Positions 41,306-64,000 of a stretch of DNA of 64,000 nucleotides are shown piece after piece (the stretch's first letter is position 1; each line of letters starts with the position of its first letter). The position numbers and the translations under genes were made by a program. The DNA comes from Candidatus Dadabacteria bacterium (lineage in GTDB: Bacteria; Desulfobacterota_D; UBA1144; Nemesobacterales; CSP1-2), in contig PSLL01000006.1 of the NCBI GenBank assembly GCA_040289575.1, positions 24,583-88,582 of the forward strand, read 5' to 3'. The notes beneath the pieces were generated by a model. It ran no database searches. It was not told the origin of the DNA and saw only the letters and a program-made list of their open reading frames with translations.

Positions 41306-41435
41306 TTAAAGCTTTATATATGTGGAATATTGAAATTTTTGATTAGAATATACTATTTCGCATTGCCAAAAATATTATTTTGTTCTTTAATATCAGACCA
41401 AATAATTATTATTAAATCTCCAGGAGGAATAAACT

Positions 41436-45946: not shown

Positions 45947-45967
45947 AACTAGAGGGGGAAAAGACGA

Positions 45968-46981: not shown

Positions 46982-46993
46982 GATATTGAATCG

Positions 46994-47017
46994 TAGGGGG
47001 CAAATGGCCGCCCCCTA
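46994..47017 (+). terminator. Stem-loop TAGGGGGC-AAATGGCC-GCCCCCTA after korB
   Basis: 8-bp perfect inverted repeat 13 nt after the korB stop. The downstream U-tract is weak. Confidence 0.35.
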
Positions 47018-47130
47018 CAATGTGTCTGCCCCCCGATTAAGTTATTTAGAACCATAAAGTAGAGTATATCCATTATAGATAGGACATTTCCATAGAGAAA
47101 TGGTATAATTTTTCTTGAGGAAGATTCCGA

Positions 47131-47718
47131 ATGGCGATAAAGGTAAAGGTCATACAACCGCCAAAGTTGAGTCTTATCGAGAGACTCTATATCCCTGAGA
47201 TACTCAAGGGTCTAAAAACAACCCTTATGCACCTCCTCCGGTTTCAACCCATAACCGTACAGTATCCAGAAGAGGTAAAACAACTCCCTCCGAGATACAG
47301 GGGGCTTCATATCCTTCCCGCAGATGATGAAGGAGAGATAAGATGCGTCGCATGTAAGCTCTGCGAGGTTGCATGTCCAACTCAGGCAATATCAATTGTA
47401 TCTGAGCCTGCAGATGAATACGGGATTGAAAGAAGACCAAAGGTTTATAATATAGACTTCATGAGATGCGTTTTTTGCGGATTCTGCGTTGAGGCTTGCC
47501 CGTGTGATGCCTTGAGAATGGGGATGAAATACGAACTTGCATCATACAGTAGAGCCGGTCTTATCCATACAAAAGAGGTCTTCTTTGACCCAAACGTAAG
47601 GAGTAGAGCGCCAAGGGACAATGCAAATTTTCTATATGAAAGGGAAAAGGGCGATATCTTAGATAAACCCGAAGAGATTGAATATGTAAAAAAGCTCTCA
47701 GGAACTTATACCCCCTGA
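47131..47718 (+). CDS. NuoI-like 2x[4Fe-4S] ferredoxin (NADH-quinone oxidoreductase subunit I homolog), stand-alone
   Basis: NuoI N-terminal region (…LKTTLMHLLRFQPITVQYPEEVKQLPPRYRG) and two CxxCxxCxxxCP motifs. Confidence 0.8.
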   Translation: MAIKVKVIQPPKLSLIERLYIPEILKGLKTTLMHLLRFQPITVQYPEEVKQLPPRYRGLHILPADDEGEIRCVACKLCEVACPTQAISIVSEPADEYGIERRPKVYNIDFMRCVFCGFCVEACPCDALRMGMKYELASYSRAGLIHTKEVFFDPNVRSRAPRDNANFLYEREKGDILDKPEEIEYVKKLSGTYTP

Positions 47719-47750
47719 AGACAATTAACTCCTGATAAAGACAAAAGGTT

Positions 47751-48782
47751 ATGAAAGCAGTAGTAGTCTACGAACACGGTGGAATTGACAAGTTAAAATA
47801 CGATGAGGTACCAGACCCAGAGGTTCGTGTAAATGATGTCCTCGTACAAGTAAAAGCCTGTGGGATAAATCACCTCGATATCTGGGTGAGGAAAGGGCTT
47901 CCCCACCTCAAACTCAAGTACCCTCATATCCTCGGTTCAGATGTGTCGGGGGTTGTGACAAAGGTAGGAGAAGACGTCCGTGGAATTGAGGTAGGCACAC
48001 CTGTTTTAATATCGCCGGGAATAACGTGCGGAAGATGTGTCCACTGCTTAAGCGGTCGAGATAACCTCTGCAGAGAGTATGCGATCCTGGGTGAGAACTG
48101 TCTTGGCGGATGTGCAGAATACATATCAGTTCCAAAGGAAAACATCCTTCCCATGCCAAAGAACATCTCCTTTGAGGAAGGAGCCTGTATTCCTCTTGTT
48201 TTTCTTACCGCCTGGCATATGCTGGTATCTCGCGCGGGGATTAAAATGGGAGAAACTGTTCTGATTCACGCGGCAGGGAGTGGTGTTGGAAGCGCAGCCA
48301 TACAGATTGCAAAGCTCTTTGGAGCAACTGTAATTACCACCGCCGGAACAGATGAAAAGCTAGAGAAAGCAAAAACCATCCTCGGTGGCGATTATGGAAT
48401 CAATTACAGCAACCACGATTTCTTTGTCGAGGTAAGAAGGATTACGGGGAAAAGAGGCGTAGACATCATTGTAGATCACACGGGAGAGATAAACTGGGAA
48501 AGAAACATTCTTGCGCTCGCAACGGGCGGAAGAATAGTTGTCTGCGGCTCCACATCCGGATATGATGGGAAAACAGATATAAGACACGTATTCTTCAGAA
48601 GGCTCTCGATTCTGGGCTCCACTATGGGAAGCAAGGGGAATCTGTTTGAGGTCATAAAGCACATTGAATCAGGCAAACTCAAACCCGTGCTTTACAAAGT
48701 TCTCCCTATGTCTCGGGCTGCCGAGGGACATAGACTTATAGAGGATAGAGAGGTGTTTGGAAAGGTAGTGCTAGTCCCATAG
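47751..48782 (+). CDS. Zinc-dependent alcohol dehydrogenase / MDR-family oxidoreductase
   Basis: GroES-like N-terminal domain, structural-zinc Cys cluster (CGRCVHCLSGRDNLC), Rossmann AAGSGVGSAAIQ. Confidence 0.85.
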   Translation: MKAVVVYEHGGIDKLKYDEVPDPEVRVNDVLVQVKACGINHLDIWVRKGLPHLKLKYPHILGSDVSGVVTKVGEDVRGIEVGTPVLISPGITCGRCVHCLSGRDNLCREYAILGENCLGGCAEYISVPKENILPMPKNISFEEGACIPLVFLTAWHMLVSRAGIKMGETVLIHAAGSGVGSAAIQIAKLFGATVITTAGTDEKLEKAKTILGGDYGINYSNHDFFVEVRRITGKRGVDIIVDHTGEINWERNILALATGGRIVVCGSTSGYDGKTDIRHVFFRRLSILGSTMGSKGNLFEVIKHIESGKLKPVLYKVLPMSRAAEGHRLIEDREVFGKVVLVP

Positions 48783-48787
48783 TCAAG

Positions 48788-50417
48788 TTAGTAGACAACC
48801 TTAAATATATCCATATCCTTAATTACCCAATTATCAACCGGTCTACTCTTAAAAGACATTATCAAAATGAAGTGTTTAGACCATTCATTATTATAAACCT
48901 CATACAAGTAAGAACGCCTTTTTATATTCTCTGTGTCCAACATCAAGTAACTGATTTGCATTTTTTTAAAATCTTGAATCGCACCCTCTAAGTTATTATA
49001 AATACCGGGTCTAAAGGTAGCCACACCCAATTGCTTGGATGATAAATTTAATAGATTTTTACTACCGATTTTGGAGTCTGTAAGGATCATTTCAATCAAA
49101 TCGCCGCCCTCAACAATCGCTATGTTCCCGTGCAGGTTGCTTGCCGCCCAGATTGCCCAACTATCCCGAACCTTAGGAGTCGCAATGCTTGTACCATTCG
49201 CAATACTCAGATGAATACTCAGTGGGATACGCACAAAAAGTAATAGAATAAATAGCAAAACTAAAATATTATTTCTATTGCCCTCTCTGAGAAGATCAAT
49301 CAAGAATTTCGATGAAATAACAAAAGTAAAGGGTAGCAGTACGTACAAATATCTTGGATTGCCATAAACCTCAAATACAGGGATAAAACCTGCAACGAAA
49401 ACAAAGAAAAGAATAAAAATTAGATCGAATCTTGAAAACCTCTCTAAAATAAGATACTTAATGCCGCCAAGGAAAAATAAGGCCAACCAAACCTCCCCCA
49501 GTAGTAATATAGAATTGATTCGCTACTTTGAACAAACCGTGATAGATAAATTTTCTAAAATAGTCATCAATCTTATGTGTTCTTAAGTAATTAATAAAAG
49601 ATGGGTTAAGGGTACCTTTCAGCGATGCTTGTGTATTGAAGTCTGCAAAGTATTGTGAATTCTTGCCAAAATCAAAAGCGGATCCATATGACTTATATCT
49701 CATATACAGGTCGGGCAGTGACACTAAAAAGAACAGAAATGGCACTAACAGTAGAAATGACCGGCTTAAGTTTGCCTTCTTATACCACAGTAACCACACT
49801 AGATACAGAAGGACAACACCCAGCATAAATATGCCATTGGGCCTCACATAATTTGAAAAACCAGCCAAGATGGTGGCAATGACAATTCTGTGCGATTTGT
49901 TTGCGGAATCCGCCAAATAATACACCGTTGATATAACCAATAAGATAAAGAGCGGTTCACTGTATCCCGAGTATTCCAAGCCGCCTGTACGTATCAATAT
50001 TGGAGAGAGTGCAAAGGCAAAAACAGCAACTATAGAAGATTTTTTATCAGTTAATTTATTAGCAAGGCCAGAAAAAGGGAAAATAGATAAACCCATAATC
50101 AAAATAGACAAAACTCTTGAAAGAATCATTCCATCAAAAATTGATCGGATACCGAATACCTTGAGAAAGGCGGCTAGCACTATTGACCAGCCAATTGAAT
50201 GGCTGTGCATAGGAATCCAATTTCCCTGTGCTATTTCAAAACCCTTTATTAGATAATAATACGCATCTTCCCGCAACACATCATTAAACGGTGTAGAAAA
50301 GGTCATTAATGTGACCATTAAGAGAAAACAAGAGGTTGTAAACCATATATATTTCGAGTATAAGTAGGGAAATGCAATATCTAATTTATTGTTTATATAG
50401 TTAATAGCATCTATCAC
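48788..50417 (-). pseudogene. GT39/GT83-like (ArnT/PMT_2-type) polyprenyl-phosphate-sugar-dependent membrane glycosyltransferase, split by a frameshift near 49460-49490
   Basis: The N-terminal 319-aa ORF carries the PMT_2/ArnT first-loop motif (REDAYYY…). A 232-aa ORF in another frame continues the multi-TM protein. The ORFs overlap at 49458..49486 next to a CCCCC run. Confidence 0.6.
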
Positions 50418-50511
50418 GATTTAACCTTTTATGCACTATGTGAAAGCGTACACCAGCCATTAAATTTTTATGGCAATATGAGACTACCATCCGACAATTT
50501 TTTAATAGTCT

Positions 50512-51543
50512 TCATTTCCTCCCTTTAACCGTACCACTACTCTTCTTTTTTGATATGAGAAAACCCCAGAAGAAGCCTATTTTATTGGAGATTTCAAATA
50601 AGAACATAAAAGGGAGATATAGTAAGAACTCTCCTACCGAACTAGACTGTCGTGCTCTCCAAAAAGCACTGAGTAATGTACCCGACTTTCCCATAATTCC
50701 CCATAGTATCAACCGAAACGAGCCTACAGAACCGTTCGAGTACTTCTTGTGATAACTCCAACCGTTGCGGCCAGTATCAAAGCACTTACTAACTGTATCA
50801 AGAACGCTCCTTCGACCGTACCGATGCCTGATCCGATGGTAGGGATAATAGTAAACCGGTATGCCTTCGGCACGTAGGCGCCTAGTCATGTCTGTATCCT
50901 CTGCTCTAAGTAGCGATTCATCGAAAAGCCCTACCTTCTGGAAGACTTCCCTCTTGAACGCAGCCCCTCCCGCTGCCTCTAGGTCGTGTTGTGTTGTTAT
51001 TTTTTCTTCTATAACCGACAGCCTTCGCCATCTTCTCTTCAATTTTTCTAACCAGTGTTCATCTAAAATTTCTTCACAAGATAGGCGCCTTCTAACACTA
51101 ACATCAAAGTAGAAATGGCTAACCCTGCTAAAGAAATCTTCCTCGGCTGCAATGATCTTGAATCGCACCACCATTGCACGGGGATTCTCCTGAAAAAACC
51201 TAATTATGGTTTCGGCATAATCAGGAGCCATTATGTAATCGTCAGCCACAATTGCAATTATGCCCCCGGAAGCATTGACAATGCCCGTGTTTCTCGTCGC
51301 CGGGATTCCCTTATGAGTTTGCCGACAGTACTTCAATCCCGGGTGACTCAGTGATATGCTCTCCATCATGCCCTCTGTACCATCTGTTGATCCATCATCT
51401 ACAACTATTATCTCTAGATTTTCCCTCGGTACAGTCTGAGAAAATAATGAATCCAAGCAACCACGGAGCATATCTTTGCGATTATAGGTCAAGACGATAA
51501 TGGATAGCACTCCAGGTTTTCCTCTGGTCATATTCAAATCCAC
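50512..51543 (-). CDS. Glycosyltransferase family 2 with a C-terminal hydrophobic segment (DPM1/GtrB-like polyprenyl-phosphate glycosyltransferase candidate)
   Basis: GT2 N-terminus (LSIIVLTYNRKDMLRGCLDSLFSQTV…EIIVVDDGSTDGT). Confidence 0.75.
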   Translation of the reverse strand: MDLNMTRGKPGVLSIIVLTYNRKDMLRGCLDSLFSQTVPRENLEIIVVDDGSTDGTEGMMESISLSHPGLKYCRQTHKGIPATRNTGIVNASGGIIAIVADDYIMAPDYAETIIRFFQENPRAMVVRFKIIAAEEDFFSRVSHFYFDVSVRRRLSCEEILDEHWLEKLKRRWRRLSVIEEKITTQHDLEAAGGAAFKREVFQKVGLFDESLLRAEDTDMTRRLRAEGIPVYYYPYHRIRHRYGRRSVLDTVSKCFDTGRNGWSYHKKYSNGSVGSFRLILWGIMGKSGTLLSAFWRARQSSSVGEFLLYLPFMFLFEISNKIGFFWGFLISKKKSSGTVKGRK

Positions 51544-51615
51544 GGTTTACACCTACCCCTTGAAATTAGCTTATCAATCATATCTAGAGGTGCATCAAAG
51601 AATAAGACGGTACGA

Positions 51616-52479
51616 TTAAAGGAGATTTCTCATCTTTATCATATCTCTCAGTTTCCAGTATTTCATGCTCAATCGCCAACTGAATCCGAGCAATATCGCC
51701 AAGAAATGAGAGTGCTGCCTTATATCAACTTTGTGCTTTTTCTCGTCCGCAATAATAAATTCCTCACCGTATTTCCTTCTTATGTAATACTCACCCTTGG
51801 TATACCAAACCCTCTGTTTTATTAAACCCACCAGCGAATCTCTACAATCCAGATAGGCGATAATATCGTCTGATTTATACAAATCGATTCCATTTTCCTG
51901 CAAACGGAGATAAAGGTCATAGTCCTCTCTCGATGGGAGTGATTCATCGAATAGCGGATTTATCATCCTTAAGAGTGTTCTCTTAATTGAAAAATTGCCC
52001 GACGACAGTCTGTTTACTCGATAGAGCCTACTGTCTTTCTTATTAAAAACTGCATCGTAGTTATAGAACCAGAAGTTGGAGTAGAAATCGTCCCTTAGCC
52101 TCTTAAGGTTCCCATTGAGCACCATTACCTCGGGATGCTCTTTGTGGACTCGAATTGTCTCAAGAATATAGTTTCGTTCGACTATGCAATCATCATCCAG
52201 GAATATTATAATGTCGCCGGTGCTTTGACTTAGGCCGTAGTTTCTTGCAAAGCTTGGACCTCTATTTCTATCTAACGAGTAGAGTCTGAGAAAAGAATAT
52301 TTTTTATCCAATAGATAGTTCATTTGTTTATCTGCCACACAATCACTATGGTCGTCTACAATGAGTACTTCTAAATTTATTTCTAATCCGTGTTCCCTGA
52401 TCTGTGGAATCAAGGAATTTAATAGATTGGCTAGCTTATTAAATCTGTTATACGTGGGAATAATGATTGAAACCTTCAT
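51616..52479 (-). CDS. Glycosyltransferase family 2
   Basis: GT2 N-terminus (VSIIIPTYNRFNKLANLL…LIVDDHSDC…FLDDDC). Confidence 0.8.
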   Translation of the reverse strand: MKVSIIIPTYNRFNKLANLLNSLIPQIREHGLEINLEVLIVDDHSDCVADKQMNYLLDKKYSFLRLYSLDRNRGPSFARNYGLSQSTGDIIIFLDDDCIVERNYILETIRVHKEHPEVMVLNGNLKRLRDDFYSNFWFYNYDAVFNKKDSRLYRVNRLSSGNFSIKRTLLRMINPLFDESLPSREDYDLYLRLQENGIDLYKSDDIIAYLDCRDSLVGLIKQRVWYTKGEYYIRRKYGEEFIIADEKKHKVDIRQHSHFLAILLGFSWRLSMKYWKLRDMIKMRNLL

Positions 52480-54272
52480 GGTCTTGTTATCTTAACAATC
52501 GCTTCCTCGGGCAGTGCATAAATCCATGTAAGCCCCCGGCGCAAAAGGAATGGGCGTCCAAATAGGTCGTGGAATTGGATCGGATCACTACCGTGAATTC
52601 TGTACCAGGTTGCCCCCTCTGATCTGGGGCCACACCAAATCTGGGCTGGGCCCTCTCCATATGTATCAATTCGCAGCCGTCCCTGAATGTCGCCGGGGAT
52701 GTTGGTCACACGTACCCAAATTAGAACCAGGTTGGCAATCAAGAGATTGGGATCACCCGTTGCATCCTCACCCACCGGCGTATTGAGAACCGTCCGTCGG
52801 AATCCCCCGGCCAAACCGTCCCACTCGAATCGTTCTGGATAGGGAGCACGGGGACGCGAATGGACCTCAATCCGTACTCGCGCCGTTCCCTCGTCATCCC
52901 GAATTGCCTCATCTCGGAAAATAGTAGAGAGTCCCGGACAGTAATGCGCAATTAGATTAATACCTGCTGCTGTTGATTGCTCTAGACCTATAGGGGAAAT
53001 TATGGTCAGTTTATCCAATTGCCCAAAGATACGCTCGGGAACAATAAAGATATTATGCGGAGGAGTCCGCCCGTCTTCTGTCGCAAGAATCTGTGCATTC
53101 TGAAGAACCTCAGGCTCACCAGATGCACCTATATGATAACGGTATTCAATATCAATCACGCGCTCCAGATGCTCGAGAAGAGTCCGTGATTCGGGGCTTC
53201 CACCGCAGTGGACATAGAAAGGCTGATAGGCTCCGGCCCACTCGATAAAATATGGCCGGGCGCTCCGTACCGGTCCCACTCTGTCACTGAAAATCCGGGT
53301 GAAGACAGGCATAAGACGCGTCAATCCACCTTCAACTGGAGCCTCGATGATAAGGGATGCACCAGCCAATCCCAGCTGTGGATGTGAACGGCTAGAGTTG
53401 TCAACCATCACCGCAGGCAAGCCGCACCAGAGGTCAATTCTATTTTTATCACCATCAGATGCATTGCTTCTTACTACCATTGGAAAAGACGCCACGCGAG
53501 TTTCAGGAAGTATCCAGTCAAATGCGGCACTGAAGGCATAAGTCTCAGGCAGTCGGCGATCGGCAAGCCGGTGATATTCCATAAGTAACAGATACAATGG
53601 CCTGTATAAGAATCGTGACCTCAGCACCAGTCGGCATAAGAGCAGATAGAGACTCAAGATTCGGGATCGATGTCCCAGTTCATTATTGAACATCCACAGC
53701 GCCGTCACCGGCTGAAGGAGGCTGCTCTTGTTGACTGTAATCGTCTCGTTCTCAACGAATCCCTCATGCTGAAGGAGGAATTTCGTGTACCGGAGCGAGC
53801 GAAGACCATAATATCCCACGGCGTCTATGTGATGACGAGTATATTCTTCTGGAAAGCACTTTGCCCAACGAATAATGGGTTTCGATGAATCCAGGTCTAC
53901 AAAGAAAATCAAACGCCCGCCCGGACGAAGCACACGTTTAATCTCGCGCAATGCGGCGACGAATTGCCTCTCAGTTAGGTGCTCGAACATCCAAATACTC
54001 ACCACCGCATCCACTGAACGATCTGATAAAGGCAGCCGCTCGACCTGTGAACGAATGACCCGATTGTATATTGATGCGGCGCTCTGAAGCGCCCCGGCGC
54101 CATAATCCACTCCCGTTACACGTCCAAATTCTGTCAGAAATTCCCAGCCGCCACCGCAACCCAAGTCAACGATCTCTAATGGATAACGACCAAGCCGTGC
54201 CAGCATCGGTCGCAAAAGATGGGTATGCCCCAGTGGATATTCCGCCGGAGCAACCACCCCAACGGTCCCCAA
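52476..54272 (-). CDS. Class I SAM-dependent methyltransferase fused to a ~400-aa C-terminal domain of unknown function (possibly DUF3048-like); GC-rich compositional outlier
   Basis: Motif I VDLGCGGGW and post-I LRPGGRLIFFVDL. The C-terminal domain contains GGLTRLMPVFT…GPVRSARPYFIEWAGAY. Local GC is visibly higher (~55%) than the flanks (~35-40%). Confidence 0.7.
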   Translation of the reverse strand: MGTVGVVAPAEYPLGHTHLLRPMLARLGRYPLEIVDLGCGGGWEFLTEFGRVTGVDYGAGALQSAASIYNRVIRSQVERLPLSDRSVDAVVSIWMFEHLTERQFVAALREIKRVLRPGGRLIFFVDLDSSKPIIRWAKCFPEEYTRHHIDAVGYYGLRSLRYTKFLLQHEGFVENETITVNKSSLLQPVTALWMFNNELGHRSRILSLYLLLCRLVLRSRFLYRPLYLLLMEYHRLADRRLPETYAFSAAFDWILPETRVASFPMVVRSNASDGDKNRIDLWCGLPAVMVDNSSRSHPQLGLAGASLIIEAPVEGGLTRLMPVFTRIFSDRVGPVRSARPYFIEWAGAYQPFYVHCGGSPESRTLLEHLERVIDIEYRYHIGASGEPEVLQNAQILATEDGRTPPHNIFIVPERIFGQLDKLTIISPIGLEQSTAAGINLIAHYCPGLSTIFRDEAIRDDEGTARVRIEVHSRPRAPYPERFEWDGLAGGFRRTVLNTPVGEDATGDPNLLIANLVLIWVRVTNIPGDIQGRLRIDTYGEGPAQIWCGPRSEGATWYRIHGSDPIQFHDLFGRPFLLRRGLTWIYALPEEAIVKITRP

Positions 54273-54502
54273 CCACGCTGCTCTCGGTACGACGTTGTCC
54301 AGCGGCTATCATGCGGAATATCACCCTCGACGAATCTGGCAATACCGTCTTCCACCAGCCAGGGACCGTGACCCGCTGTGCACACTAAAGTTCCCCGACC
54401 GTTTTTTACATCACACTGAAGGGCAATGTGACAATCGGGGCAGATCAGATCATCGGATCGGAAGGACATAAGGTTGTGAACCCTATCATATAGAACATTC
54501 AT
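54176..54502 (-). CDS. Trm112-like zinc-ribbon ORF overlapping the annotated start of the methyltransferase (possibly its frameshifted N-terminal domain)
   Basis: LICPDCHIALQ…LVCTAGHGPWLVEDGIARFVEG matches the Trm112/YcaR CPxC…C…(aromatic)x[IV]xDGI[PA]x[FLM][LV] pattern. The 3' half of the ORF overlaps the MTase ORF in another frame. Confidence 0.45.
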   Translation of the reverse strand: MNVLYDRVHNLMSFRSDDLICPDCHIALQCDVKNGRGTLVCTAGHGPWLVEDGIARFVEGDIPHDSRWTTSYREQRGWGPLGWLLRRNIHWGIPIFCDRCWHGLVVIH

Positions 54503-54511
54503 AAAATATTC

Positions 54512-55426
54512 TCATGAATCTCTATGTCGAATCTCTAAATTCGGCATCCCCCAGCACTCATACCCCATATCATGAGCCATCATACCTAAACCCTCTGTTT
54601 CTATCTCTCCAATATAAATTCCTTTCAAAATATGTAGGATCTCTCTTCGTGCTTCTAGTATATTTCCTTTTCTTATTCCTCTTAGAGCACTTAGTACCGC
54701 TCTCCTTATTATGGCTCTTTTTGGTTCAAGGTAATGGTTTCCCCTTATAAGTGGATTTTTTCTACCATACAAGAACGGAGGGAAAATCAACCCGTCTCTA
54801 TGAATATCCGCTTTTATTAAAAGCATGGTCCCACCCACAGCATGTAATTTTACTAGATCACTCTCATTTCTTAGGTCATGCATGTGTAATTTCCCTTTAT
54901 CCCTCCAGGCATTCAGATCGAAGCTCATACAGCCGTATTGCGTTAAGCAATACGGCTGTATGATGTCTTTTCCGGTTGCTAAAAGTTTTTCTATAATATC
55001 AGGAGGATACTCAATGACATCAACATCTATCCACAGGACCCAATCCTCATCATCAAGTGCATGAAAAAGGAGATGGTTTCGACTCCTTGCAAGTATAGTT
55101 CTTCTCTCTATTTGGATGTGTCCGGCCCATCGGGGTGTGCCCGGCGGTATATGAAACCCAAAATCCCTTTTCCACAGCCTAGCAGACCGGAACTCTTTTC
55201 TTAGCCCCGAAAGTGATTTTTCCAATTCAAGATAGGTGTTGTCTACGCTATCGCCTTCCAAGAATCCGAGGGAGATCAAGTTATGTGGGTAGGTTAATTT
55301 ATAGAGGGACTGAAAATAGGTTTCTAAAAACGCTTCGGCATCTTTAACCGGAGTTAATATAAGAACCTTGTCCCTATATTCCATAGCCACCCACCCTCCT
55401 CTATTTTCATGATAGGAAGTAATCAA
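54512..55426 (-). CDS. GT62-like glycosyltransferase (Anp1/Mnn9/Van1 family alpha-1,6-mannosyltransferase homolog)
   Basis: Several blocks match the fungal mannan-polymerase family: KVLILTPVKDAE…LTYPHNLISLGFL; DWVLWIDVDVIEYPPDII; HAVGGTMLLIKADIHRDGLIFPPF; ETEGLGMMAHDMGYECWGMPN. Confidence 0.65.
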   Translation of the reverse strand: MITSYHENRGGWVAMEYRDKVLILTPVKDAEAFLETYFQSLYKLTYPHNLISLGFLEGDSVDNTYLELEKSLSGLRKEFRSARLWKRDFGFHIPPGTPRWAGHIQIERRTILARSRNHLLFHALDDEDWVLWIDVDVIEYPPDIIEKLLATGKDIIQPYCLTQYGCMSFDLNAWRDKGKLHMHDLRNESDLVKLHAVGGTMLLIKADIHRDGLIFPPFLYGRKNPLIRGNHYLEPKRAIIRRAVLSALRGIRKGNILEARREILHILKGIYIGEIETEGLGMMAHDMGYECWGMPNLEIRHRDS

Positions 55427-55640
55427 CCGGAATTGATATAACTAGCTCTTTCATAAATATCAGTATTATATTGTGTAGTCTCATATCGATACCATTGATT
55501 GAGTATTGTTTCAAGCTTCCGGTAGAATCTGCTTTACCACATTCGACCAAGCTCGATCAATTAATATAAGTTTGGGTACTTTCTTGGTTAGATCATTCAT
55601 TATTTCCTGTTTGGTGCTCTTCCTTGCAATAAAGGTCAAA

Positions 55641-57030
55641 TTAAAATATCGGCTTGCTGATCTCCTCTGGGAATAAGCCTGGACTGGATTTGTTTGTATG
55701 ATCTCCTAATATGTATATGTAATCGTTGTTTTTAGTGTGTTCCTTTATCCATAGACCTAGCTGTTTATATCGCCCATATTCATCGTCGACACCTTTAATA
55801 TTTATACTATAAAACCTGTAAAGGGTTTGGTATGGTGCCCACAATATTGCTATTATGACTATAGTCTGGACGATGTATCTTCGCCTCTCTGTTTCTCCAA
55901 TTAAGTTAGCTTGAAATAACACATTGATTGCTATTCCAGAGGCGAGCGCTATCGACGGTAGAATTTGTTTGAATTGATGTCCCAAATAATATCCAGATGC
56001 ATTTACACCTAGAAAATCCAAGCCGATCCAGAAAACAATGCCTCCAAATGGTATCTTATTATCTATTATCCTTTTTTCTGGACAATAAATAGTAAGATCA
56101 ATGGATAGAATAAAACTATTTTAGAATGTCCCCAAGCATCAATAAACTTCCCAATCCTTATTTTATAATCGGCACTGCCCCCTTCCTTCTGCATTAAAAT
56201 TAACCATGCATCCTTGAAGTAATCAATCATAGTAACGCCACTTGCCAAAAGAGGAATTAAACTGAGACACATAGGAAACACAACAGCTGCGAATAAGAGA
56301 AATGAATCTCTAAAAGTACTTTTATAGGTTAAGGAACGTTTATCACCTAAGCCTAATAAAAATGCAAATAGTGCAATAGCACTAAGTATTGCAGTTTGCT
56401 TAAAAGCAATTGCGATTCCCATAAAGAATCCAGCAATTAAGGTGTCTCTAATATATAATAAAAGGCTTCTTGCTTCCTGGGCCTTTAAAAGAAATAAGAA
56501 AGCGAGAGTTGAAAATAAAACCATGAATGATTCAGTCTGTGCGGTATATGCTCCATCCATCAGCCTTCAAATCATGCTGAAGCCAAAGAGAATCATAGTG
56601 AGGACACCAACTAAATGATTGCATAATTTTCGTCCAATTATATAAAGTAAAATTGAAGTCGTAACAATAGATAAGCTAGCCAGAATTCTCGGAAACCAAA
56701 TATTTAGATCGAATAGAAGATTGGAAATGACAAATACTATATAGATGCCCGGAGTCTTATTCTCAATGGCTCCGATGTATAGAGGAATCCCATACTTAAT
56801 CCATAGAAAAGCAATATAATTCCACATCCCCTCGTCATTGCCCATGTATTCACTGAAAGATGCAATTAGAAGCAGGGAAAAATAATTATTGCTACTATAA
56901 TAGGACTGGTCACAACCCTATAAAGACTATTATATAAACCCATCTTATTCATACTTTTCGGTCTCAAAAAATAATCTCTTGTCAAGACCAATTCTTTCTC
57001 CAAATGACTATTTACATGGAAAGAAAGCAT
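55641..57030 (-). pseudogene. Second GT39/GT83-like (ArnT/PMT_2-type) membrane glycosyltransferase, broken by two frameshifts and an in-frame TGA
   Basis: Consecutive minus-strand pieces: 56863..57030 (first TM helix), 56567..56845 (DEGMWNY…ENKTPGIY loop motif), 56066..56560 and 55641..56021. A TGA at 56567-56569 separates two pieces in the same frame. Confidence 0.6.
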
Positions 57031-57131
57031 TATTCACCTCTATCTATAGCCGTATCCGTTCCCTGAATAGCCACCTAAGGTTCTATGTATGTAATCACAA
57101 CTAGATGAGAATAGGCTAAATTATAAAGTAA

Positions 57132-57935
57132 CTACTCGTAATCCTTAGACAGATAGTGCGAAACCACTTTGCGGGTTTCGTCATTGATCACAATCCTTCC
57201 TTTACTTAAAAGAATCGCTCTATCACAGAGGTTCTCAATTGCTTTCATATCATGGCTTACAAAAAGCACCGTTCGTCCTTCAGATGCTACGTCCTTCATC
57301 TTATTGAGGCACTTCTCCTTAAATGCCCCGTCTCCTACCGCTAAGACCTCATCCAACAGCATAATCTCTGGCTCCAGGTGTGTGGCAATGGCAAAAGCAA
57401 GGCGCACATTCATACCGCTTGAGTAGTGCTTAATTGGCGTATCTAAAAAATCCTCTACTTCTGAGAATGCCACAATTGCATCGAATTTGCGGTTGACCTC
57501 TGCCCTTCTCATCCCCAAGATTGTGCCACCGAGGTATATATTCTCCCTTCCTGTCAGTTCGGGATGGAAGCCGGTACCAACCTCAAGCATCGAACCCATC
57601 TTACCATAGATTTCAGCATAGCCCTCCGTTGGCTTTGTAATCCGAGAAAGAATCTTAAGAAGAACCGATTTACCGGCGCCGTTAGAGCCGATTATGCCCA
57701 CCACCTCGCCACATTTAACCTCAAAGGAAACATTCCTTAATGCCCAAACGTATTTGTCATCTTCTGATCGCCGTCTGCTGTGATTATTCGTTCCATAACG
57801 AATGGCAGAGGAAAAACGACGAAATGGTGCGCGCATGACGTCCTCTAAGAATTCGCGCATGGCGTTGGTCGCTCTCGGCCGATCTATAAGAAAGCGCTTG
57901 CTAATACCTATAGCCCGAATTGCGAGGTTACTCAT
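57132..57935 (-). CDS. wzt: Polysaccharide/O-antigen ABC exporter ATP-binding protein (Wzt/TagH/KpsT type, no C-terminal carbohydrate-binding domain)
   Basis: Walker A GSNGAGKS, ABC signature YSSGMNVRLAFA, and the typical N-terminal region of glycan-export ATPases. 267 aa. Confidence 0.85.
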   Translation of the reverse strand: MSNLAIRAIGISKRFLIDRPRATNAMREFLEDVMRAPFRRFSSAIRYGTNNHSRRRSEDDKYVWALRNVSFEVKCGEVVGIIGSNGAGKSVLLKILSRITKPTEGYAEIYGKMGSMLEVGTGFHPELTGRENIYLGGTILGMRRAEVNRKFDAIVAFSEVEDFLDTPIKHYSSGMNVRLAFAIATHLEPEIMLLDEVLAVGDGAFKEKCLNKMKDVASEGRTVLFVSHDMKAIENLCDRAILLSKGRIVINDETRKVVSHYLSKDYE

Positions 57936-57938
57936 CTC

Positions 57939-58796
57939 TTACACCACATCGGCAAAGGCATCTTCTTTATATCTGAAGAAGTATAATCCCCCTACAAGTA
58001 GTGCGATTACCACTATAATTGAAAAAGTAAGTAGCATAGTTGGAGGATGTGTCTTTCCTAAAAGCGCCCATCTGAAACCCTCGACTACACCAGCCATTGG
58101 ATTAAGGCCGTAAATCGCCCGCCATCGTTCCGGCACCAGGCTACTCGGATAGGCAATAGGGGTTGCAAAGAGCCATATTTGAGTCAGAAATGGCAGAGTA
58201 AATCCCACATCCCGATACCTGACATTCAAAGCAGCCAACCACAACCCAATCCCCAAAGCCGTTGCTACTGCTAGTATGATAAAAAGAGGCAGCGCCCACA
58301 AAGCCATTGTTGGAACAATCCCATAAAACAACATCATTCCAATCAGCATGACAAACGTTATTGCGAAATCCAAAAACCCAGTTATCACAGTAGTCATTGG
58401 AATTATAAGCCTTGGGAAATAAACCCTAGTAATCACAGCCCTATTATTTACCACGCTGTTGCTTGACTGGGTCAATACATTGACGAAATATGTCCATGGC
58501 ACAAGCGCACTGTATGCAAATATAGGGTAAGAAATCCCTTCGGAAGGCACCCTTGCCAGTTTGCCAAAGAATACGCTTAACACCACCATGGCGATAAAAG
58601 GCTGGATGACAGCCCATGATGCACCAACTATAGTCTGTTTGTATCGCACCTTAATATCACGCCACGCAAATAAGTAGAGCAAATCCCGGTACTCCCATAA
58701 CTCACGGAGGTTGAGCAAAATCCCCCTACTCGTAGGTCGAATTATAGTCGTTGGGCAATCAGATGAATCTACACCTATGAATTTGATCCCTTTCAT
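57939..58796 (-). CDS. wzm: ABC-2 type polysaccharide export permease (Wzm)
   Basis: Six TM helices with the Wzm N-terminal motif (YRDLLYLFAWRDIKVRYKQTIVGASWAVIQP). The start is placed at the internal ATG 58794-58796, which has an AAAGGA RBS 5 nt upstream. The longer ORF (to 58928) would overlap the upstream GT2 by 124 nt. Confidence 0.8.
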   Translation of the reverse strand: MKGIKFIGVDSSDCPTTIIRPTSRGILLNLRELWEYRDLLYLFAWRDIKVRYKQTIVGASWAVIQPFIAMVVLSVFFGKLARVPSEGISYPIFAYSALVPWTYFVNVLTQSSNSVVNNRAVITRVYFPRLIIPMTTVITGFLDFAITFVMLIGMMLFYGIVPTMALWALPLFIILAVATALGIGLWLAALNVRYRDVGFTLPFLTQIWLFATPIAYPSSLVPERWRAIYGLNPMAGVVEGFRWALLGKTHPPTMLLTFSIIVVIALLVGGLYFFRYKEDAFADVV

Positions 58797-58804
58797 TGTT
58801 CCTT

Positions 58805-59488
58805 TCACAGTTGCCATTGCACAAATAGGGATTTCAGCCAACGCTTTATTCGGATCCGGTTTGCCATTTGCAAGCCGAGTGCATGACGGAGCGGTTCTGA
58901 CAGATCCAACAATAATTGATACCTCCATGACCTTCGGCTTTTATAAAAATATATAAACTCATCAATAAAATGCTCTCTCTGTAAAGCCCCGTCCCAACAG
59001 ATTCTCATAGCCCAGTCAATATCCTCAGAATAGCTTATATCCTCAAATTTATAACGGAGTGCAATTTCGCGTTTCATCGGGTTAAGATGATACGGCGGTC
59101 TGAAGTATACCCCTCCCCTTGAGAAATACTCTCTGTATCGTAGTGAATGTATGAAAATGCGCGGTTTTTTTCCACCAAAGGTAATTATGCCCTTGATCCC
59201 GATACAATCAATATCCAGATTCTCTCTTATCACACTACAAATGAGAGGAATGTAATTGTTGCTAACATCATCGTCGTCATCAATGAAAGCGACGAATCTC
59301 CCCCTTGCCCTCTCTATAAGCCTATTTCTCTTGAATCCAAGTGAGTATTCCCTGTTGTCTAAGAGATACAAAATCTCTACTTCATCGGCAAGGGAATTAC
59401 CGGTTATTTGATTACTCAGTTTTTCATATAGTCTATGAAATTGTTCCTTTCTGCTATCGAGAGTCGGTATGAGAATACTGAATAGCAT
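58805..59488 (-). CDS. Small glycosyltransferase family 2 (227 aa)
   Basis: GT2 N-terminus (FSILIPTLDSRKEQFHRL…FIDDDDDVSNNY). Confidence 0.7.
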   Translation of the reverse strand: MLFSILIPTLDSRKEQFHRLYEKLSNQITGNSLADEVEILYLLDNREYSLGFKRNRLIERARGRFVAFIDDDDDVSNNYIPLICSVIRENLDIDCIGIKGIITFGGKKPRIFIHSLRYREYFSRGGVYFRPPYHLNPMKREIALRYKFEDISYSEDIDWAMRICWDGALQREHFIDEFIYFYKSRRSWRYQLLLDLSEPLRHALGLQMANRIRIKRWLKSLFVQWQL

Positions 59489-59498
59489 TTATAAAGTC

Positions 59499-60353
59499 TC
59501 AGTTATGATTATCTTTATTTGCACTTACTGGTATTTCCAGCCAGTGTGAAAGGTCGCGCCTCAGGATGTCCTGAGTCTGTAATATATCCTCCCGGTAATA
59601 TTCAATCAGCCACTCACGCACCTCAGTCTGAAGCTCCGGTTTTCTTAGATTGCTTTGCCTAAGTCCCCCTAGAATCACGTCCCAGACCTTTAGTCGAAGT
59701 TTTAGTCGAGTCTTCTCAGATAAGAACGGTCTCAATATATCCGAGATAAAATTCGGCTGAGTTAGAAAGGTGTTAAGCTTCACATTTATTGGATAACCGG
59801 AGACATTATGTCTGGCTGGGGCCTTGATCACAAGTTTCCCATCCAAATCAAGGAATTGAACTATACTCTTGATTAATTCCCTTGGATTCCGCTGCAAATC
59901 CTCAAAGAGGAAAACCCCAATCTGCTCATGGCAAAAAAGAGACAAATATCGCGCAATCTGTTCAGCGTAAAGCCCCATTCTTCGATAAAACCAGAACGGA
60001 GACCAACCATTACGCATCCTTTCTTCCTCCGCATTGATCGCTTCTCTAAAATCATCGAGATTTTCATACTCCAAAAGTCTGTGATGGAGAAAGTGAGAGT
60101 ATGCCCTGTCTATTGGATTGCGCAGGATAGCTATGATTTTGACATCCGGTATATAGTGCTTAATTCGATAAGGGGCTTTTGGGCTATAAAGGTAAAGAGG
60201 AGAAGCTTCTCCAATAGCCTTCTCATCCCGAACCCCGGAAAAGAGAGAACAATAGGTTTTAATGTCTCGTATCCCTTGGTTATCTTTAGGTCCCCGAAAC
60301 GGTTCGCTTTCCCCTTCGACCGCAAAGAATAGTGGCTCCTTTATAGAACTCAT
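59499..60353 (-). CDS. Sulfotransferase-family protein lacking the N-terminal 5'-phosphosulfate-binding loop (probably truncated)
   Basis: 3'-phosphate-binding motif RNPIDRAYSHF and the IKEPLFF region typical of PAPS sulfotransferases. No K-x-G-T-T loop is encoded. The ATG overlaps the TGA of the upstream GT4 fragment (ATGA). Confidence 0.6.
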   Translation of the reverse strand: MSSIKEPLFFAVEGESEPFRGPKDNQGIRDIKTYCSLFSGVRDEKAIGEASPLYLYSPKAPYRIKHYIPDVKIIAILRNPIDRAYSHFLHHRLLEYENLDDFREAINAEEERMRNGWSPFWFYRRMGLYAEQIARYLSLFCHEQIGVFLFEDLQRNPRELIKSIVQFLDLDGKLVIKAPARHNVSGYPINVKLNTFLTQPNFISDILRPFLSEKTRLKLRLKVWDVILGGLRQSNLRKPELQTEVREWLIEYYREDILQTQDILRRDLSHWLEIPVSANKDNHN

Positions 60354-61108
60354 GAAAATCTGCGGGTTCCGATTACGTGTAAATGAATATCCTCACCATG
60401 CAACCTCACTTCCGACAATATATCTATTATATTTTCTAATCTCTTCTCACCAGAAATCCTCCCAATGCATACAAAACCATTCTCTCTCTCCTGCCAGGGC
60501 ACATCTGGGAAGAGACCGGGAACTGGAGGATATACAGTTGTCGTCTCAATTCCATAAGATTCTCTGCACTTGATTCCGGTCCAGTCCGAATTTACCAGGG
60601 TGAGGTTCTCTTTCATTCTTTCAAACGAATAACCCGAAATCGCCATCCATGGCCGGTACTGACCACGCACTATACCCCATAGGCATTGATACCAAGGAAG
60701 ATCAACGAACTGCTGGCATATAGGCTCGAATCGAGGAAACCAGGGGTAGTGAACATATTGGATTCCCCTGCAGCCGAGGTCAGCCTCCCCGTTGGCGGTG
60801 ATAATAACATCGTAATCGCCATTCATCTTCTTGCACAGGCGCATGAGAAAGGCAAACTTTTGTGCGCTGTGGGGGTCGGGGTCAAGCTCTATTAAACCGC
60901 GTATGAGCCGGGGAGTATAATAGACCTTGAAATCAGATGAGCTGAGAGATGTTCCAAAGAACCGGTTGATCGCGGCAACACTAACGGGTGCCCAAGTCAG
61001 AACAGAAACCGAGTTTTCTCGTTTCAGAGCTTCAATCATCCATACTGCCACAGCATTTCCACCGCCCAGTGGCTCAAGGCTGGGCTGCACAAGTAAGACC
61101 TTTTTCAT
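60350..61108 (-). pseudogene. N-terminal two-thirds of a GT4 glycosyltransferase (paralog of 62150..63331) lacking the C-terminal catalytic half
   Basis: ~60% identical over 250 aa to the N-terminal domain of the 393-aa GT4 at 62150..63331 (…NLTLVNSDWTG…TTVYPP.P..FPDVPW.ERENGFVCIGR…HLH.IGT). It then terminates where the full copy continues for ~140 aa. Confidence 0.65.
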
Positions 61109-61129
61109 CGAGGACGTCTATGAAATCGG

Positions 61130-62146
61130 CTACAGACTTATGCCAGGCAATTTTAAATTCTCACATTCCGCTTCAACTGTTGGAGCAGATATACTGCCAT
61201 CTCCTGCGGAACGCAGCATATTCAAACTATCCTGTAAATTGTACTCCCACTTATCCAATAGATGATTCATGATTTTTGGGTTGTCGGCTAACTCTCTGAT
61301 GGAGCGTCTTGGCACACCGCCCGTAGGAGATATACCCAGCGGAAGGTCCTGCCATATTACTCCATCAAAATAAGCCTGCATATTTCGCCAAAATAATTCA
61401 TGGGATTGACTTGCTAGAGCCATGTCAAAGACATTTTTAGCATACATATACTCCTTATTCCACATATATGACAGGTTATTTCTCCTATATAAATCCGCCC
61501 TTGACTCCAGCTTCTTAAGGTAGTTCACAGGAAAAATCGCCCGATACCTGTAGAACGGCTGGGGTAAGTAGTAGGTGTGCTCTCCCTTCGCGTACAGCAA
61601 ATAATCCCTTAGTTTACGGGAGCGAAACACAAAACGCTTGAGGTCGTAACCGACATCATAGGCATCGCCTTTTGAGATTATATATTCCTTGTTTTTAAAT
61701 AGCCTCCTCCTAAAATCCACAATCCAGAGTAGTCTACTCCCCATTATGTTATAGAACGGCAATCTGAACATCTCCACGTCTGGGTAAAGAACGGGTAGGT
61801 TTCTGATCTCTTCTAGGGAGGATTCATGTATTATCTCGTTTGCCTGAACATAAAGACAGTAACTGCCAGTACATCTCTGTTTTAAAAGATTGGTCATCGT
61901 CGCAAGGATTTCACCCCTCTCCGTTTTGCCCCTCCATTCGTCTCTGAAGAGTCTGACCTTGCCGGGGAACCTTCTCTCTAAAATTTGCAAGGCTTTCCAT
62001 GTCTTATCCGATGAATAGCCTTCGGATATAAGGAACTCGTCACAAATAGGCAGAGCGGCTGTTATAGCCTCTATAAACGGGTATCCCTGCGATACGACGT
62101 TTTTCAATATCATAAAGCCCGATATGGTCACTTTTTCTACAGGCAT
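61130..62146 (-). CDS. Putative GT-A-fold glycosyltransferase, uncharacterised (338 aa)
   Basis: N-terminus ISGFMILKNVVSQGYPFIEAITAALPICDEFLISEGYSSDKT resembles uncharacterised GT2-like proteins of glycan loci. The call is weak. Confidence 0.35.
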   Translation of the reverse strand: MPVEKVTISGFMILKNVVSQGYPFIEAITAALPICDEFLISEGYSSDKTWKALQILERRFPGKVRLFRDEWRGKTERGEILATMTNLLKQRCTGSYCLYVQANEIIHESSLEEIRNLPVLYPDVEMFRLPFYNIMGSRLLWIVDFRRRLFKNKEYIISKGDAYDVGYDLKRFVFRSRKLRDYLLYAKGEHTYYLPQPFYRYRAIFPVNYLKKLESRADLYRRNNLSYMWNKEYMYAKNVFDMALASQSHELFWRNMQAYFDGVIWQDLPLGISPTGGVPRRSIRELADNPKIMNHLLDKWEYNLQDSLNMLRSAGDGSISAPTVEAECENLKLPGISL

Positions 62147-62149
62147 GGT

Positions 62150-63331
62150 TTACACCCATCGAGTCTTCTGGAATTGTCTTACGATTTCCTGAATATCACT
62201 CATAAATTTCTCTGTCGAGAACAGCTCTTTTCTTGATCTCAAGTAGTCAATCAATGACATTTGCTCATCTGGATTCTCTATCACGCGTACAATCTTCTCG
62301 TTTGCTTCCTCTTCAGTCCTATAAACCAGACGTTCATCCCCTCCTACAATCTCCAACTGCCCGCCGCTGTTATGAACAAAGGCTATACAACCCGCTTTGA
62401 TCATCTCTCCCACCGCAATCCCGAAATGTTCCTCTATGTTTGCGTGAATTCCGTACCTGTGCCTGGAAATCAGATTTATAAGCTTCTCTCTCGATAAGTT
62501 TTCGTGTAAGAGAACCCAAGGAGAATTTTCTCTTACAACTCTTATAAGTCTTGAATAATATTCGCTTTCACCTATGAATGGGCTAGGGGTTCCTATGATA
62601 TGTAAATGGAGATCGGGGATTCTCGCCCTGACCTTTGCAAGAATCTCTATTATCGTCTCAAATCTCTTCCCAGGGCAGAATCTCCCAATACAGACAAACC
62701 CGTTTTCCCTCTCATTCCAGGGAACATCAGGAAATTTGTCAGGAATCGGGGGATAAACTGTTGTAGCATCAATCCCGTAACGTTCCTTAACTTTATTTCC
62801 CGTCCAATCCGAGTTAACGAGGGTAAGATTATCTTTCATCCGATTGTATGAAAAACCTGAAATCAGCATCCAGGGCCTATAACTGCCTTTCAATGCTTCC
62901 CAAAACTTTCGATGATGAGGCAAATCAATATCGGGTTGAATCTTTCCGTATAAATAAGGATAGTGAAAATACTGTATTCCCCGACATCCGAAGTCTATTT
63001 CATTCTCGGTGGAGATTACTACATCATATTTGCCATTCAACCTCTTGCATAAGCGCATCAGGTAGCTCTGCCTCTGAATACTTGCGGGATCGGGGTCTAG
63101 GTTTATAATGCCACGCAAAACGGGGTTAATATGATGCACAGTAAGCTCTGAACTCTTAAGTGAAGTGCCGTAGAAGCGGTTTATCTCCTCGAAATTAGGA
63201 GATTTCCAGGTTAGTAATGAGACTGAATACTCCTTCTTCAACGCCTCAATCATCCAGGCCGCAACCGTGTTTGCGCCCCCAGGGGGTTCAAGAGTGGTTT
63301 GAACAAATAAGACTTTTTTCATAGATGACAT
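62150..63331 (-). CDS. Glycosyltransferase family 4 (full-length copy)
   Basis: GT-B N-terminal domain plus a C-terminal Glycos_transf_1 domain (…EHFGIAVGEMIKAGCIAFVHNSGGQLEIV…). Confidence 0.8.
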   Translation of the reverse strand: MSSMKKVLFVQTTLEPPGGANTVAAWMIEALKKEYSVSLLTWKSPNFEEINRFYGTSLKSSELTVHHINPVLRGIINLDPDPASIQRQSYLMRLCKRLNGKYDVVISTENEIDFGCRGIQYFHYPYLYGKIQPDIDLPHHRKFWEALKGSYRPWMLISGFSYNRMKDNLTLVNSDWTGNKVKERYGIDATTVYPPIPDKFPDVPWNERENGFVCIGRFCPGKRFETIIEILAKVRARIPDLHLHIIGTPSPFIGESEYYSRLIRVVRENSPWVLLHENLSREKLINLISRHRYGIHANIEEHFGIAVGEMIKAGCIAFVHNSGGQLEIVGGDERLVYRTEEEANEKIVRVIENPDEQMSLIDYLRSRKELFSTEKFMSDIQEIVRQFQKTRWV

Positions 63332-63354
63332 TCAATAATTCTACAAACTATTAG

Positions 63355-64000
63355 CTACATGACACGTTCATTCTTTCTCTCCCAGTTAATGTACTTAAAC
63401 TTGTTAAAATACGTGTTGAATACATCGGCAAAATCGCCATGTAATATTCTGTCAGCCACATACTTAAACTGATGGATCAATCTTTTTGAACGATATGCAG
63501 GTATCAAAATATCCGTCTTTTCTTTATTGTCGGATGCGAATAATTTTATCTTTTCAACTATATAAGGGAAAAGCTGATAACGGTACAATACGAGATTTCT
63601 GGCCTCCTCTAAAGCCGAAATACGCTTTTCCTAGTCATCCCGATCTATAATCTCCCTTATCTTTTTCAAACTAGCCTCTGGTTGATCTACATCAATTCGT
63701 ATAAAAGACTCTTTGGGAAAATACTCCTCTAGATTCGTACAACCATAGTATATGGGAACCGTCCGGGTAAGAAAGCAATCCGCTACTTTTTCTGTCCAGT
63801 AATCAGGACCGCTACTGTTCTCAACCGCAAGCGAGTATTTATACGGAGCCAGTCCGTCCCACTTGTCCTTGACACATCTGATTCCTCTTCCGAATACGTC
63901 TATATTGAACCTGGCATTTTGCCTGAGGAAATCCAAGAGTGCCATCTTTTTCCTATGCCCCGGAAGAAACGTCAGTTTGCTTGTAACCCAAGATATAGCC
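63355..64000 (-). pseudogene. GT10 (alpha-1,3/4-fucosyltransferase-like) gene, C-terminal part, with an in-frame TAG at 63631-63633; the N-terminus lies beyond the window end
   Basis: GT10 signature YKYSLAVENSSGPDYWTEKVADCFLTRTVPIYYG. The frame is open upstream of the listed Met to position 64000. A TAG separates two ORFs that are in the same frame (…IREIIDRDD*EKRISALEEARNLVLYRYQLFPYIVEK…). Confidence 0.6.

Follow-up and report, generated by a model that had tools for sequence, protein, structure and literature searches.

Remnants of a glycosyltransferase and a sulfotransferase gene, very probably joined by a recent deletion, in the surface-polysaccharide locus of a Candidatus Dadabacteria strain

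Surface-glycan loci commonly decay by deletion and frameshift, as in the loss of O-antigen genes in Yersinia pestis. Bacterial gene clusters for sulfated polysaccharides are uncommon but documented, and include the synechan xss cluster of Synechocystis (PMC8205485) and the sulfated capsules of marine Vibrio (PMC11641403) and Cobetia (PMC11766843). Here we describe two overlapping open reading frames (ORFs) in a 64,000-nucleotide (nt) stretch (the window hereafter) of a metagenome-assembled genome (MAG) of a Candidatus Dadabacteria bacterium, namely an ORF of 252 amino acids (aa) derived from a GT4-family glycosyltransferase gene, GT4_2, and an ORF of 284 aa derived from the gene of a sulfotransferase of the type dependent on 3'-phosphoadenosine 5'-phosphosulfate (PAPS), sulfotransferase B. 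Both ORFs are pseudogene remnants, and we are highly confident that they mark the scar of a single, very recent deletion of 2,441 bp in the surface-polysaccharide locus of one strain.

As in O-antigen and capsule pseudogenes, the inactivation is found at the strain level, small lesions are clustered and the remnants are still called as ORFs. It is unlike the O-antigen loss of Y. pestis in concerning an uncultured environmental lineage labelled Dadabacteria and in that the lost functions include two sulfotransferases. The locus shares with the synechan, Vibrio and Cobetia clusters the presence of glycosyltransferases and sulfotransferases in one polysaccharide cluster, whereas export is here predicted to proceed through an ATP-binding cassette (ABC) transporter of the Wzm/Wzt type and both sulfotransferases are gone in this strain. 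A literature search for Dadabacteria together with sulfotransferase found no paper. The deletion itself is ordinary in kind, opens no new mechanism and settles no open question. It does provide a base-resolved example of glycan-locus variation between >99.8% identical strains of an uncultured lineage, and it bears on annotation: the deposited 'sulfotransferase' and 'hypothetical protein' are halves of dead genes, and if they were counted as functional, a sulfotransferase would be wrongly attributed to the genome and the loss of four functions overlooked.

The intact allele and the deletion junction

Relatives are referred to by the labels of this analysis (loci L001-L097 and proteins P0005-P0121; 89 loci were fetched). 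The 90%-identity cluster of the window's sulfotransferase protein contains P0121 (315 aa), whose contigs L090, L091 and L092 come from three sequencing runs. Their flanks are 99.8-99.97% identical to the window at the nucleotide level overall, with one mismatch in 3,637 nt over 64000..60364 and 99.8% identity over 60378..49534; the two BLAST segments share 15 nt of the window, and in L091 a gap of 2,441 nt separates them. All three carry GT4_2 in full (384 aa) and sulfotransferase B in full (315 aa, beginning MMKMPNFLIIGAPRSGTTTLHEELKRHPQIFMSS and including IIGAPRSGTT), and between these two genes stand a second sulfotransferase, sulfotransferase A (267 aa; Sulfotransfer_1, E=7e-14, loop FRSGSTLL), and a Glyco_trans_1_2 protein (352 aa). 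The deleted segment corresponds to L091 7643..10083 and comprises GT4_2 codons 249-384, sulfotransferase A, the Glyco_trans_1_2 gene, a spacer and sulfotransferase B codons 1-27. In L091, sulfotransferase A lies at 8088-8891 and sulfotransferase B at 10001-10948. When the proteins of the relative L006 were compared with the 64-kb window by tblastn, sulfotransferase A and the Glyco_trans_1_2 protein had no match, the alignment of GT4_2 was confined to residues 1-248 and that of sulfotransferase B did not begin before residue 25. A collinear intact allele thus exists, both flanks have been kept and the segment between them is absent from the window, as in a deletion pseudogene. The first-pass annotation had proposed that a deletion fused the remnants of two genes at a locus that ancestrally carried a sulfotransferase, and the intact alleles bear this out, with the additions that two whole genes were also lost and that the ancestor thus had two sulfotransferases.

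Read in the opposite direction, the window would hold the ancestral state and the relatives would have gained a 2.4-kb insertion. Glycan loci gain and lose cassettes, and the relative L012 naturally lacks sulfotransferase A, the Glyco_trans_1_2 gene and the 338-aa ORF (orf338) that precedes GT4_2. However, sulfotransferase B and the GT4 genes are full-length in L012, both window ORFs hold incomplete domains whose missing halves are the exact ends of the extra segment in L091, and no insertion could supply, in register, the C-terminal half of one gene together with the N-terminus of another, which leaves this alternative with a negligible probability.

At the junction, the left copy of a 15-nt direct repeat (ACGTAATCGGAACCC, in the window) and the right copy (ACTTAAGCGGCATCC, in the intact strains) are identical at 11 of 15 positions. 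The join lies at a shared CC (60365-60364), after which sulfotransferase B resumes at 60363; in the three-way alignment the left flank reads ...CACGTAATCGGAACCC|CGGGTCATGAC, the right flank ...GAACTTAAGCGGCATCC|GCAGATTTTCATGAG and the window ...CACGTAATCGGAACCCGCAGATTTTCATGAG. As the chance of at least 11 of 15 matches at a random join is about 1e-4 (binomial estimate), the short imperfect repeat very probably guided the deletion event. Through the deletion, codon 249 of GT4_2 now runs into codon 28 of sulfotransferase B at the CC inside the repeat, which would fit slipped-strand or microhomology-mediated illegitimate recombination. As in such deletions, a short direct repeat flanks the lost segment and one copy is kept at the junction, although the repeat is imperfect (2 nt exact at the join) and sequence alone cannot separate this route from end joining.

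A foreign DNA patch ending at the junction, as in homology-facilitated illegitimate recombination, was considered and rejected: sliding identity to L002 is ~0.93 to the left and ~0.92 to the right of the join, and identity to L091 is 99.9% on both sides. Since there is no identity discontinuity at the join, a simple deletion is enough. A frameshift or sequencing error alone was likewise rejected, as 2.4 kb including two genes is absent.

The out-of-frame join makes GT4_2 read on as RRFS and stop at a TGA built from the TG of sulfotransferase B Met32 and the first A of Ser33, and gene callers then start the 284-aa ORF at Met32. The junction reads ...CAC GTA ATC GGA ACC CGC AGA TTT TCA TGA, with the TGA at 60352..60350 overlapping the ATG at 60353..60351, and the called 252-aa ORF thereby gains four out-of-frame codons (RRFS) and its stop from sulfotransferase B DNA.

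The two remnants and the age of the deletion

In a BLASTP comparison the 252-aa ORF and the full-length paralogue upstream, GT4_1, are identical at 148 of 249 positions (59%, E=4e-112), in agreement with the ~60% over ~250 residues noted in the first-pass annotation, and the alignment ends at HLH(V/I)IGT. The 252-aa ORF, ending ...HLHVIGTRRFS before its stop, matched no Pfam family. It retains the N-terminal, acceptor-side Rossmann domain expected of a GT4 enzyme with the GT-B fold and the first strand of the C-terminal domain, and the donor-binding Glycos_transf_1 half, found at residues 203-360 of the intact GT4_2 of L091, is deleted, so the view that this half is missing was correct. The remnant is 93% identical to residues 1-248 of GT4_2 in L006 (tblastn) and the same as L091 and L092 up to the junction; the 457 nt of DNA that it shares with L092 are 100% identical. 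GT4_1 has Glycos_transf_1 at residues 198-365 (Pfam, E=3.6e-18), a sub-threshold Glyco_transf_4 match in its N-terminal half (24.1 bits against a cutoff of 28.5) and the sequence EEHFGIAVGE (EX7E region); it is 81% identical in aa to its L006 orthologue and differs from L091 by one single-nucleotide polymorphism (SNP). The idea of a tandem duplication did not hold, as orf338 separates the two copies and relatives with 79-91% nt identity have kept both paralogues, which dates the duplication as old. GT4_1 and GT4_2 are an old, conserved, non-adjacent paralogue pair and not a recent tandem duplication.

For sulfotransferase B, the match of the 284-aa ORF to the Pfam profile Sulfotransfer_1 (E=5e-13, above the cut-off) does not begin until position 89 of 255 and that to Sulfotransfer_3 not until position 117 of 216, whereas the intact orthologue P0121 matches them from positions 3 and 1. 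The deleted first 27 codons, MMKMPNFLIIGAPRSGTTTLHEELKRH, include the 5'-phosphosulfate-binding (PSB) loop, and 31 residues are missing from the called ORF, which starts at the native internal Met32; the N-terminal loss suspected earlier is thus real, if smaller than the ~40 residues first estimated. A motif resembling the 3'-phosphate-binding (3'-PB) motif, ILRNPIDRAYSHF, is kept in the remnant together with the core fold and is invariant across homologues. As first reported, the PSB loop is encoded neither upstream in any frame nor elsewhere in the 64-kb window. In the sulfotransferase frame, 13 codons upstream of the called ATG are open (W, a stop, then GYSFTRNRNPQIFMSS) and read GYSFTRNRNPQIF, and no P-loop-like sequence occurs in the remaining two frames there. 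All 13 had been taken as sulfotransferase homology; only four (PQIF) are sulfotransferase-derived, and GYSFTRNRN is GT4_2 DNA read in another frame.

The family assignment comes from the intact relatives. The nearest full-length homologues are 80-88% identical, 308-314 aa long and start M(K)MPNFLIIGAPRSGTTTLHEELKRHPQ(I/V)FMSSIKEPLFF. The orthologue P0007 aligns with the solved structure 3RNL, a bacterial sulfotransferase, over residues 3-308 (E=1.6e-60). Its residues 2-202, among them the N-terminal PSB-loop region, can also be aligned with the sulfotransferase domain of the heparan-sulfate enzyme NDST1, and its N-terminal two-thirds with 3-OST enzymes. Outside the lineage, homologues are mostly cyanobacterial at 43-46% identity (profile scan of genome contigs). 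The intact orthologue is in this respect like the PAPS-dependent carbohydrate sulfotransferases of Sulfotransfer_1/3 (3RNL being closest, then NDST1 and 3-OST); unlike working members of these families, the window copy is without its first 27 codons and the loop, and is not countable as working, even though the database entry for the 284-aa protein is titled 'MAG: sulfotransferase [Candidatus Dadabacteria bacterium]'.

We also looked at P0005, whose start is of the MSSIKEP/MSPVKEP type, as a possible independent truncation. This was rejected as a start-codon miscall, as its locus L010 encodes MKMPNFLIIGAPRSGTT in frame upstream. P0005, P0020, P0021 and P0022 all start at the same internal Met (MSSIKEP... 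or MSPVKEP...), with the PSB loop of P0005 visible at L010 1460..1560, and it seems that the internal ATG of sulfotransferase B attracts gene callers.

An ATGA overlap between a stop and a start codon is a classic signature of translational coupling, and catalysis in the respective families requires the PSB loop and the GT-B donor domain. The overlap noted in the first reading is real and lies at 60353..60350. It is, however, nothing other than the native codons Met32-Ser33 (ATG AGT), and since all intact relatives have ATGAGT as well, the overlap arose by accident and is no sign of evolved coupling; stop and start came to overlap only through the out-of-frame join. This bears on the suggestion that the arrangement is functional, with a stand-alone GT4 N-domain and a shortened sulfotransferase coupled by termination-reinitiation at the ATGA and serving a new role such as acceptor binding, regulation or a dominant-negative effect. 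Both remnants are indeed open (252 and 284 codons), their ratio of non-synonymous to synonymous substitution rates (dN/dS) is low and the operon context is kept, in addition to the overlap itself. The low dN/dS is explained by youth, as one SNP relative to the sister strains leaves no time for decay or selection, the arrangement is found in one strain only, and the PSB loop and the donor domain are gone, which together make a functional arrangement highly improbable.

The remnants differ from the intact L091 genes by one SNP in total, at 59949, and being almost unchanged they place the deletion as very recent. In pairwise comparisons with distant relatives, GT4_2 has a dN/dS of 0.105-0.157 and sulfotransferase B one of 0.129-0.139, compared with 0.06-0.17 for intact neighbours, and synonymous/non-synonymous changes on the window branch number 11/6 for GT4_2, 58/32 for sulfotransferase B and 67/40 for the ABC ATPase. 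As these values are like those of the neighbours, nearly all of the divergence dates from the functional period and the deletion is a strain-level polymorphism.

The same junction was found in a 6.4-kb contig from JGI 3300003453 (ERB_1000114, L001), with one mismatch in 6,357 nt (99.98%), and L001 was the only one of the fetched loci with the junction pattern; two further contigs of that dataset, L096 and L097, are 100% identical to the window. These contigs speak to the possibility of an assembly artefact or a mis-join of a minor variant, in which the real population carries the four intact genes and the assembler skipped 2.4 kb. The source is a MAG, glycan loci that vary between strains are often difficult to assemble, other samples contain the intact allele, and both assemblies with the deletion seemingly come from one sample. 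Yet the junction is shared by two assemblies, the 127-kb NCBI MAG contig and L001, and the exact shared sequence at the join is 2 nt (11/15 for the imperfect repeat), far below an assembler k-mer, so that graph collapse would be unexpected. A look-up of the intact-type sulfotransferase B (P0121) gave only Logan contigs, none of them from JGI 3300003453, and further private lesions of the strain in this locus recur in L097. We therefore consider an artefact very unlikely.

Several points nevertheless weigh against a recent deletion in a strain whose locus is decaying. The two deletion-bearing assemblies probably derive from one environmental sample and are independent as assemblies, not as samples. 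The deletion is known from assembled contigs, not from reads, and contigs do not give the allele frequency in the population. A scan of metagenome contigs for the junction pattern gave no match, which is uninformative as the scan missed even L001. Slippage as opposed to end joining, and the phenotype, are predictions. Finally, two of the five indels described below are homopolymer-length changes and could be sequencing errors, and the enrichment in the locus rests on five events (p~0.02).

The glycan cluster and its decay

The features of the window are listed in Table 1. GT4_1 and the two called ORFs lie at the coordinates first annotated, on the minus strand.

Table 1. Features of the glycan cluster and of the rest of the window, in window coordinates.
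Feature	Position	Strand	Description
GT10 (fucosyltransferase-family) gene	63355..>64000	-	Upstream edge of the cluster; nonsense codon at 63631..63633
GT4_1	62150..63331	-	393 aa, intact GT4-family (GT-B) glycosyltransferase, full-length paralogue
orf338	61130..62146	-	338 aa, between both GT4 paralogues; sub-threshold Glyco_tranf_2_4 match, E=0.0027
GT4_2 remnant	60364..61108	-	Codons 1-248 and first base of codon 249 of a 384-aa GT4
252-aa ORF as called	60350..61108	-	GT4_2 remnant plus RRFS and stop
Deletion junction	60364..60378	-	15-nt left repeat copy; 2,441 bp missing relative to L091 7643..10083
Sulfotransferase B remnant	59499..60363	-	Codons 28-315 of a 315-aa PAPS-type sulfotransferase; Pro28 completed by the shared CC
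Sulfotransferase ORF as called	59499..60353	-	284 aa
GT2-like gene	58805..59488	-	227 aa, intact, next downstream, same orientation
Wzm-like ABC-2 permease and Wzt-like ATPase	57132..58817	-	Permease ~292 aa; ATPase 267 aa, 57132..57935
PMT_2-type membrane glycosyltransferase	55641..57030	-	GC 0.34-0.36; broken into 54 + 92 + 164 + 126 aa
Methyltransferase-DUF3048 gene	52476..~54470	-	675-686 aa in L090 and L091
Membrane protein gene	48788..50417	-	542 aa, split into 319 + 232 aa
tRNA-Gly(CCC)	37425..37500	-	
c-di-AMP (ydaO-type) riboswitch	20468..20604	-	Rfam 98 bits, full length
AA_permease_2-like ORF	19343..20392		349 aa, profile positions 4-303/427; may be truncated
mutL	11340..13148	+	602 aa, apparently intact

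In the >99.8% identical strains the ancestral order is kept as GT4_1, orf338, GT4_2, sulfotransferase A, Glyco_trans_1_2, sulfotransferase B, GT2-like, Wzm and Wzt. The export pair (Pfam, ABC2_membrane 1.7e-17 and ABC_tran 7.8e-23; the longest ORF for the permease starts at 58928) follows just downstream on the same strand and is present in all relatives, and the cluster is predicted to be an ABC-transporter-dependent, Wzm/Wzt-type glycan export locus. In pathways of this type the glycan is finished at the cytoplasmic face and then exported, which suits soluble PAPS-dependent sulfotransferases such as sulfotransferase B, a protein without an N-terminal hydrophobic segment. The two sulfotransferases of the intact allele in an ABC-type glycan cluster suggest a sulfated cell-surface polymer, and judging from domain content GT4_1, GT4_2 and the Glyco_trans_1_2 protein would all be required for the polymer of the intact allele, which would carry sulfate at up to two positions. 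Without the four lost enzymes, the strain of the window would no longer add the sugars and sulfates that they supplied and may at best make a shortened, unsulfated glycan, or perhaps none, given the other frameshifts; the downstream genes are probably still co-transcribed.

Among the wider relatives, L002, L006, L007 and L009 share the order GT10, GT4 (393 aa), the 338-aa ORF, GT4 (384 aa), sulfotransferase A (267-274 aa), Glyco_trans_1_2 (352 aa), sulfotransferase B (310-314 aa), GT2-like (224 aa), ABC-2 permease, ABC ATPase and an Anp1-like glycosyltransferase, and L011 also shares the order from GT4_2 to sulfotransferase B. The 338-aa ORF is kept at the same position in L002, L006, L007, L009, L011, L090 and L091 and is absent from L012. 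The part formed by orf338, sulfotransferase A and the Glyco_trans_1_2 gene seems generally unstable, as the Glyco_trans_1_2 gene is broken in L002 and L011 and all three are absent in L012.

The deletion is not the only lesion in the neighbourhood. In the GT10 gene, a TGG->TAG change at a Trp conserved in four relatives has produced the nonsense codon; there is no difference from L091 at this codon, and L090 calls the gene as 250 + 77 aa. Being common to L090 and L091, the nonsense codon predates the 2.4-kb deletion. A further conserved W of the GT10 gene is changed to R in CFLTWTVPIYYG. The PMT_2-type gene was already broken into 54 + 92 + 306 aa in L090 and L091 and is absent from L006 and L002.

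Four small indels are private to the window strain. In the PMT_2 pseudogene a 1-nt deletion lies in a T-run at 56078, and in the methyltransferase-DUF3048 gene a 1-nt deletion (GGGG->GGG) at 54224 causes a frameshift just before the VDLGCGGG motif that binds S-adenosylmethionine; both are the same in the JGI contig L097. A second lesion of the methyltransferase-DUF3048 gene, at 53415, is an in-frame deletion of 33 nt. The 542-aa membrane protein, intact in L093 and L095, is split by a 1-nt insertion at 49508; one of the fragments has a weak PMT_2 match, and a look-up of the 319-aa fragment gave no record, so no second assembly confirms this insertion. The gene for the mismatch-repair protein MutL is apparently intact in the window, and the homopolymer indels are thus not obviously the result of mutL loss.

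Together with the 2,441-bp deletion, all five window-specific indels fall in the 15-kb glycan locus. In 19 kb of housekeeping flank (29782..48787) no indel and four SNPs were found relative to L093, compared with ~11 SNPs in the 14.5 kb of the glycan locus compared, an SNP density ~3.5x that of the flank. With the locus making up 15.2 of the 34.2 kb compared, the chance of all five indels clustering in it is (15.2/34.2)^5, or ~0.02. The contrast in both indels and SNPs suggests a locus-specific relaxation or selection for loss. With older pseudogenes of the species standing beside these indels, the locus as a whole seems to be in decay or to be selected for its loss. We tentatively propose, as possible rather than probable, that one Dadabacteria strain is still in the course of losing a doubly sulfated, ABC-exported surface glycan, possibly under selection, and that the deletion is one step in this process. 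If so, the strain would represent a naturally occurring variant without sulfation or without the glycan, for example one escaping phage or grazers, and it would also point to sulfated glycans of the ABC pathway in the Dadabacteria phylum. In sister strains from other samples the locus is still largely intact.

Further observations on the locus and the window

Upstream of the window, at L091 3075..3518, a Stealth-family gene encodes 147 aa in L090 and L091 compared with 344 aa in L002, and the methyltransferase genes of L002 and L006 are missing upstream of GT10 in L090 and L091. At the species level the locus thus seems to be eroded upstream of the window too.

Similarity within the cluster is mosaic. 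Between the window (57000..64000) and L006, the synonymous substitution rate (dS) is 0.2-0.3 for orf338 and GT4_2 and 0.8-2.5 for GT4_1, sulfotransferase B and the GT2-like gene, and L006 and L002 are near-identical over the GT2-like gene and the ABC-2 permease, with dS 0.46-1.5 from GT4_1 to GT4_2. This pattern indicates probable past recombination inside the glycan cluster. L011 and L012, the two closest loci in the scan of genome contigs, share the synteny, and their sulfotransferase B is 82-84% identical; they are labelled 'uncultured Spirochaetia' and 'Ignavibacteriales' at NCBI, and at least some of the taxonomic labels among L011, L012 and the window MAG are probably wrong.

Elsewhere in the window, a tRNA-Gly(CCC) gene was found, and the full-length c-di-AMP riboswitch lies upstream of the AA_permease_2-like ORF (Table 1).

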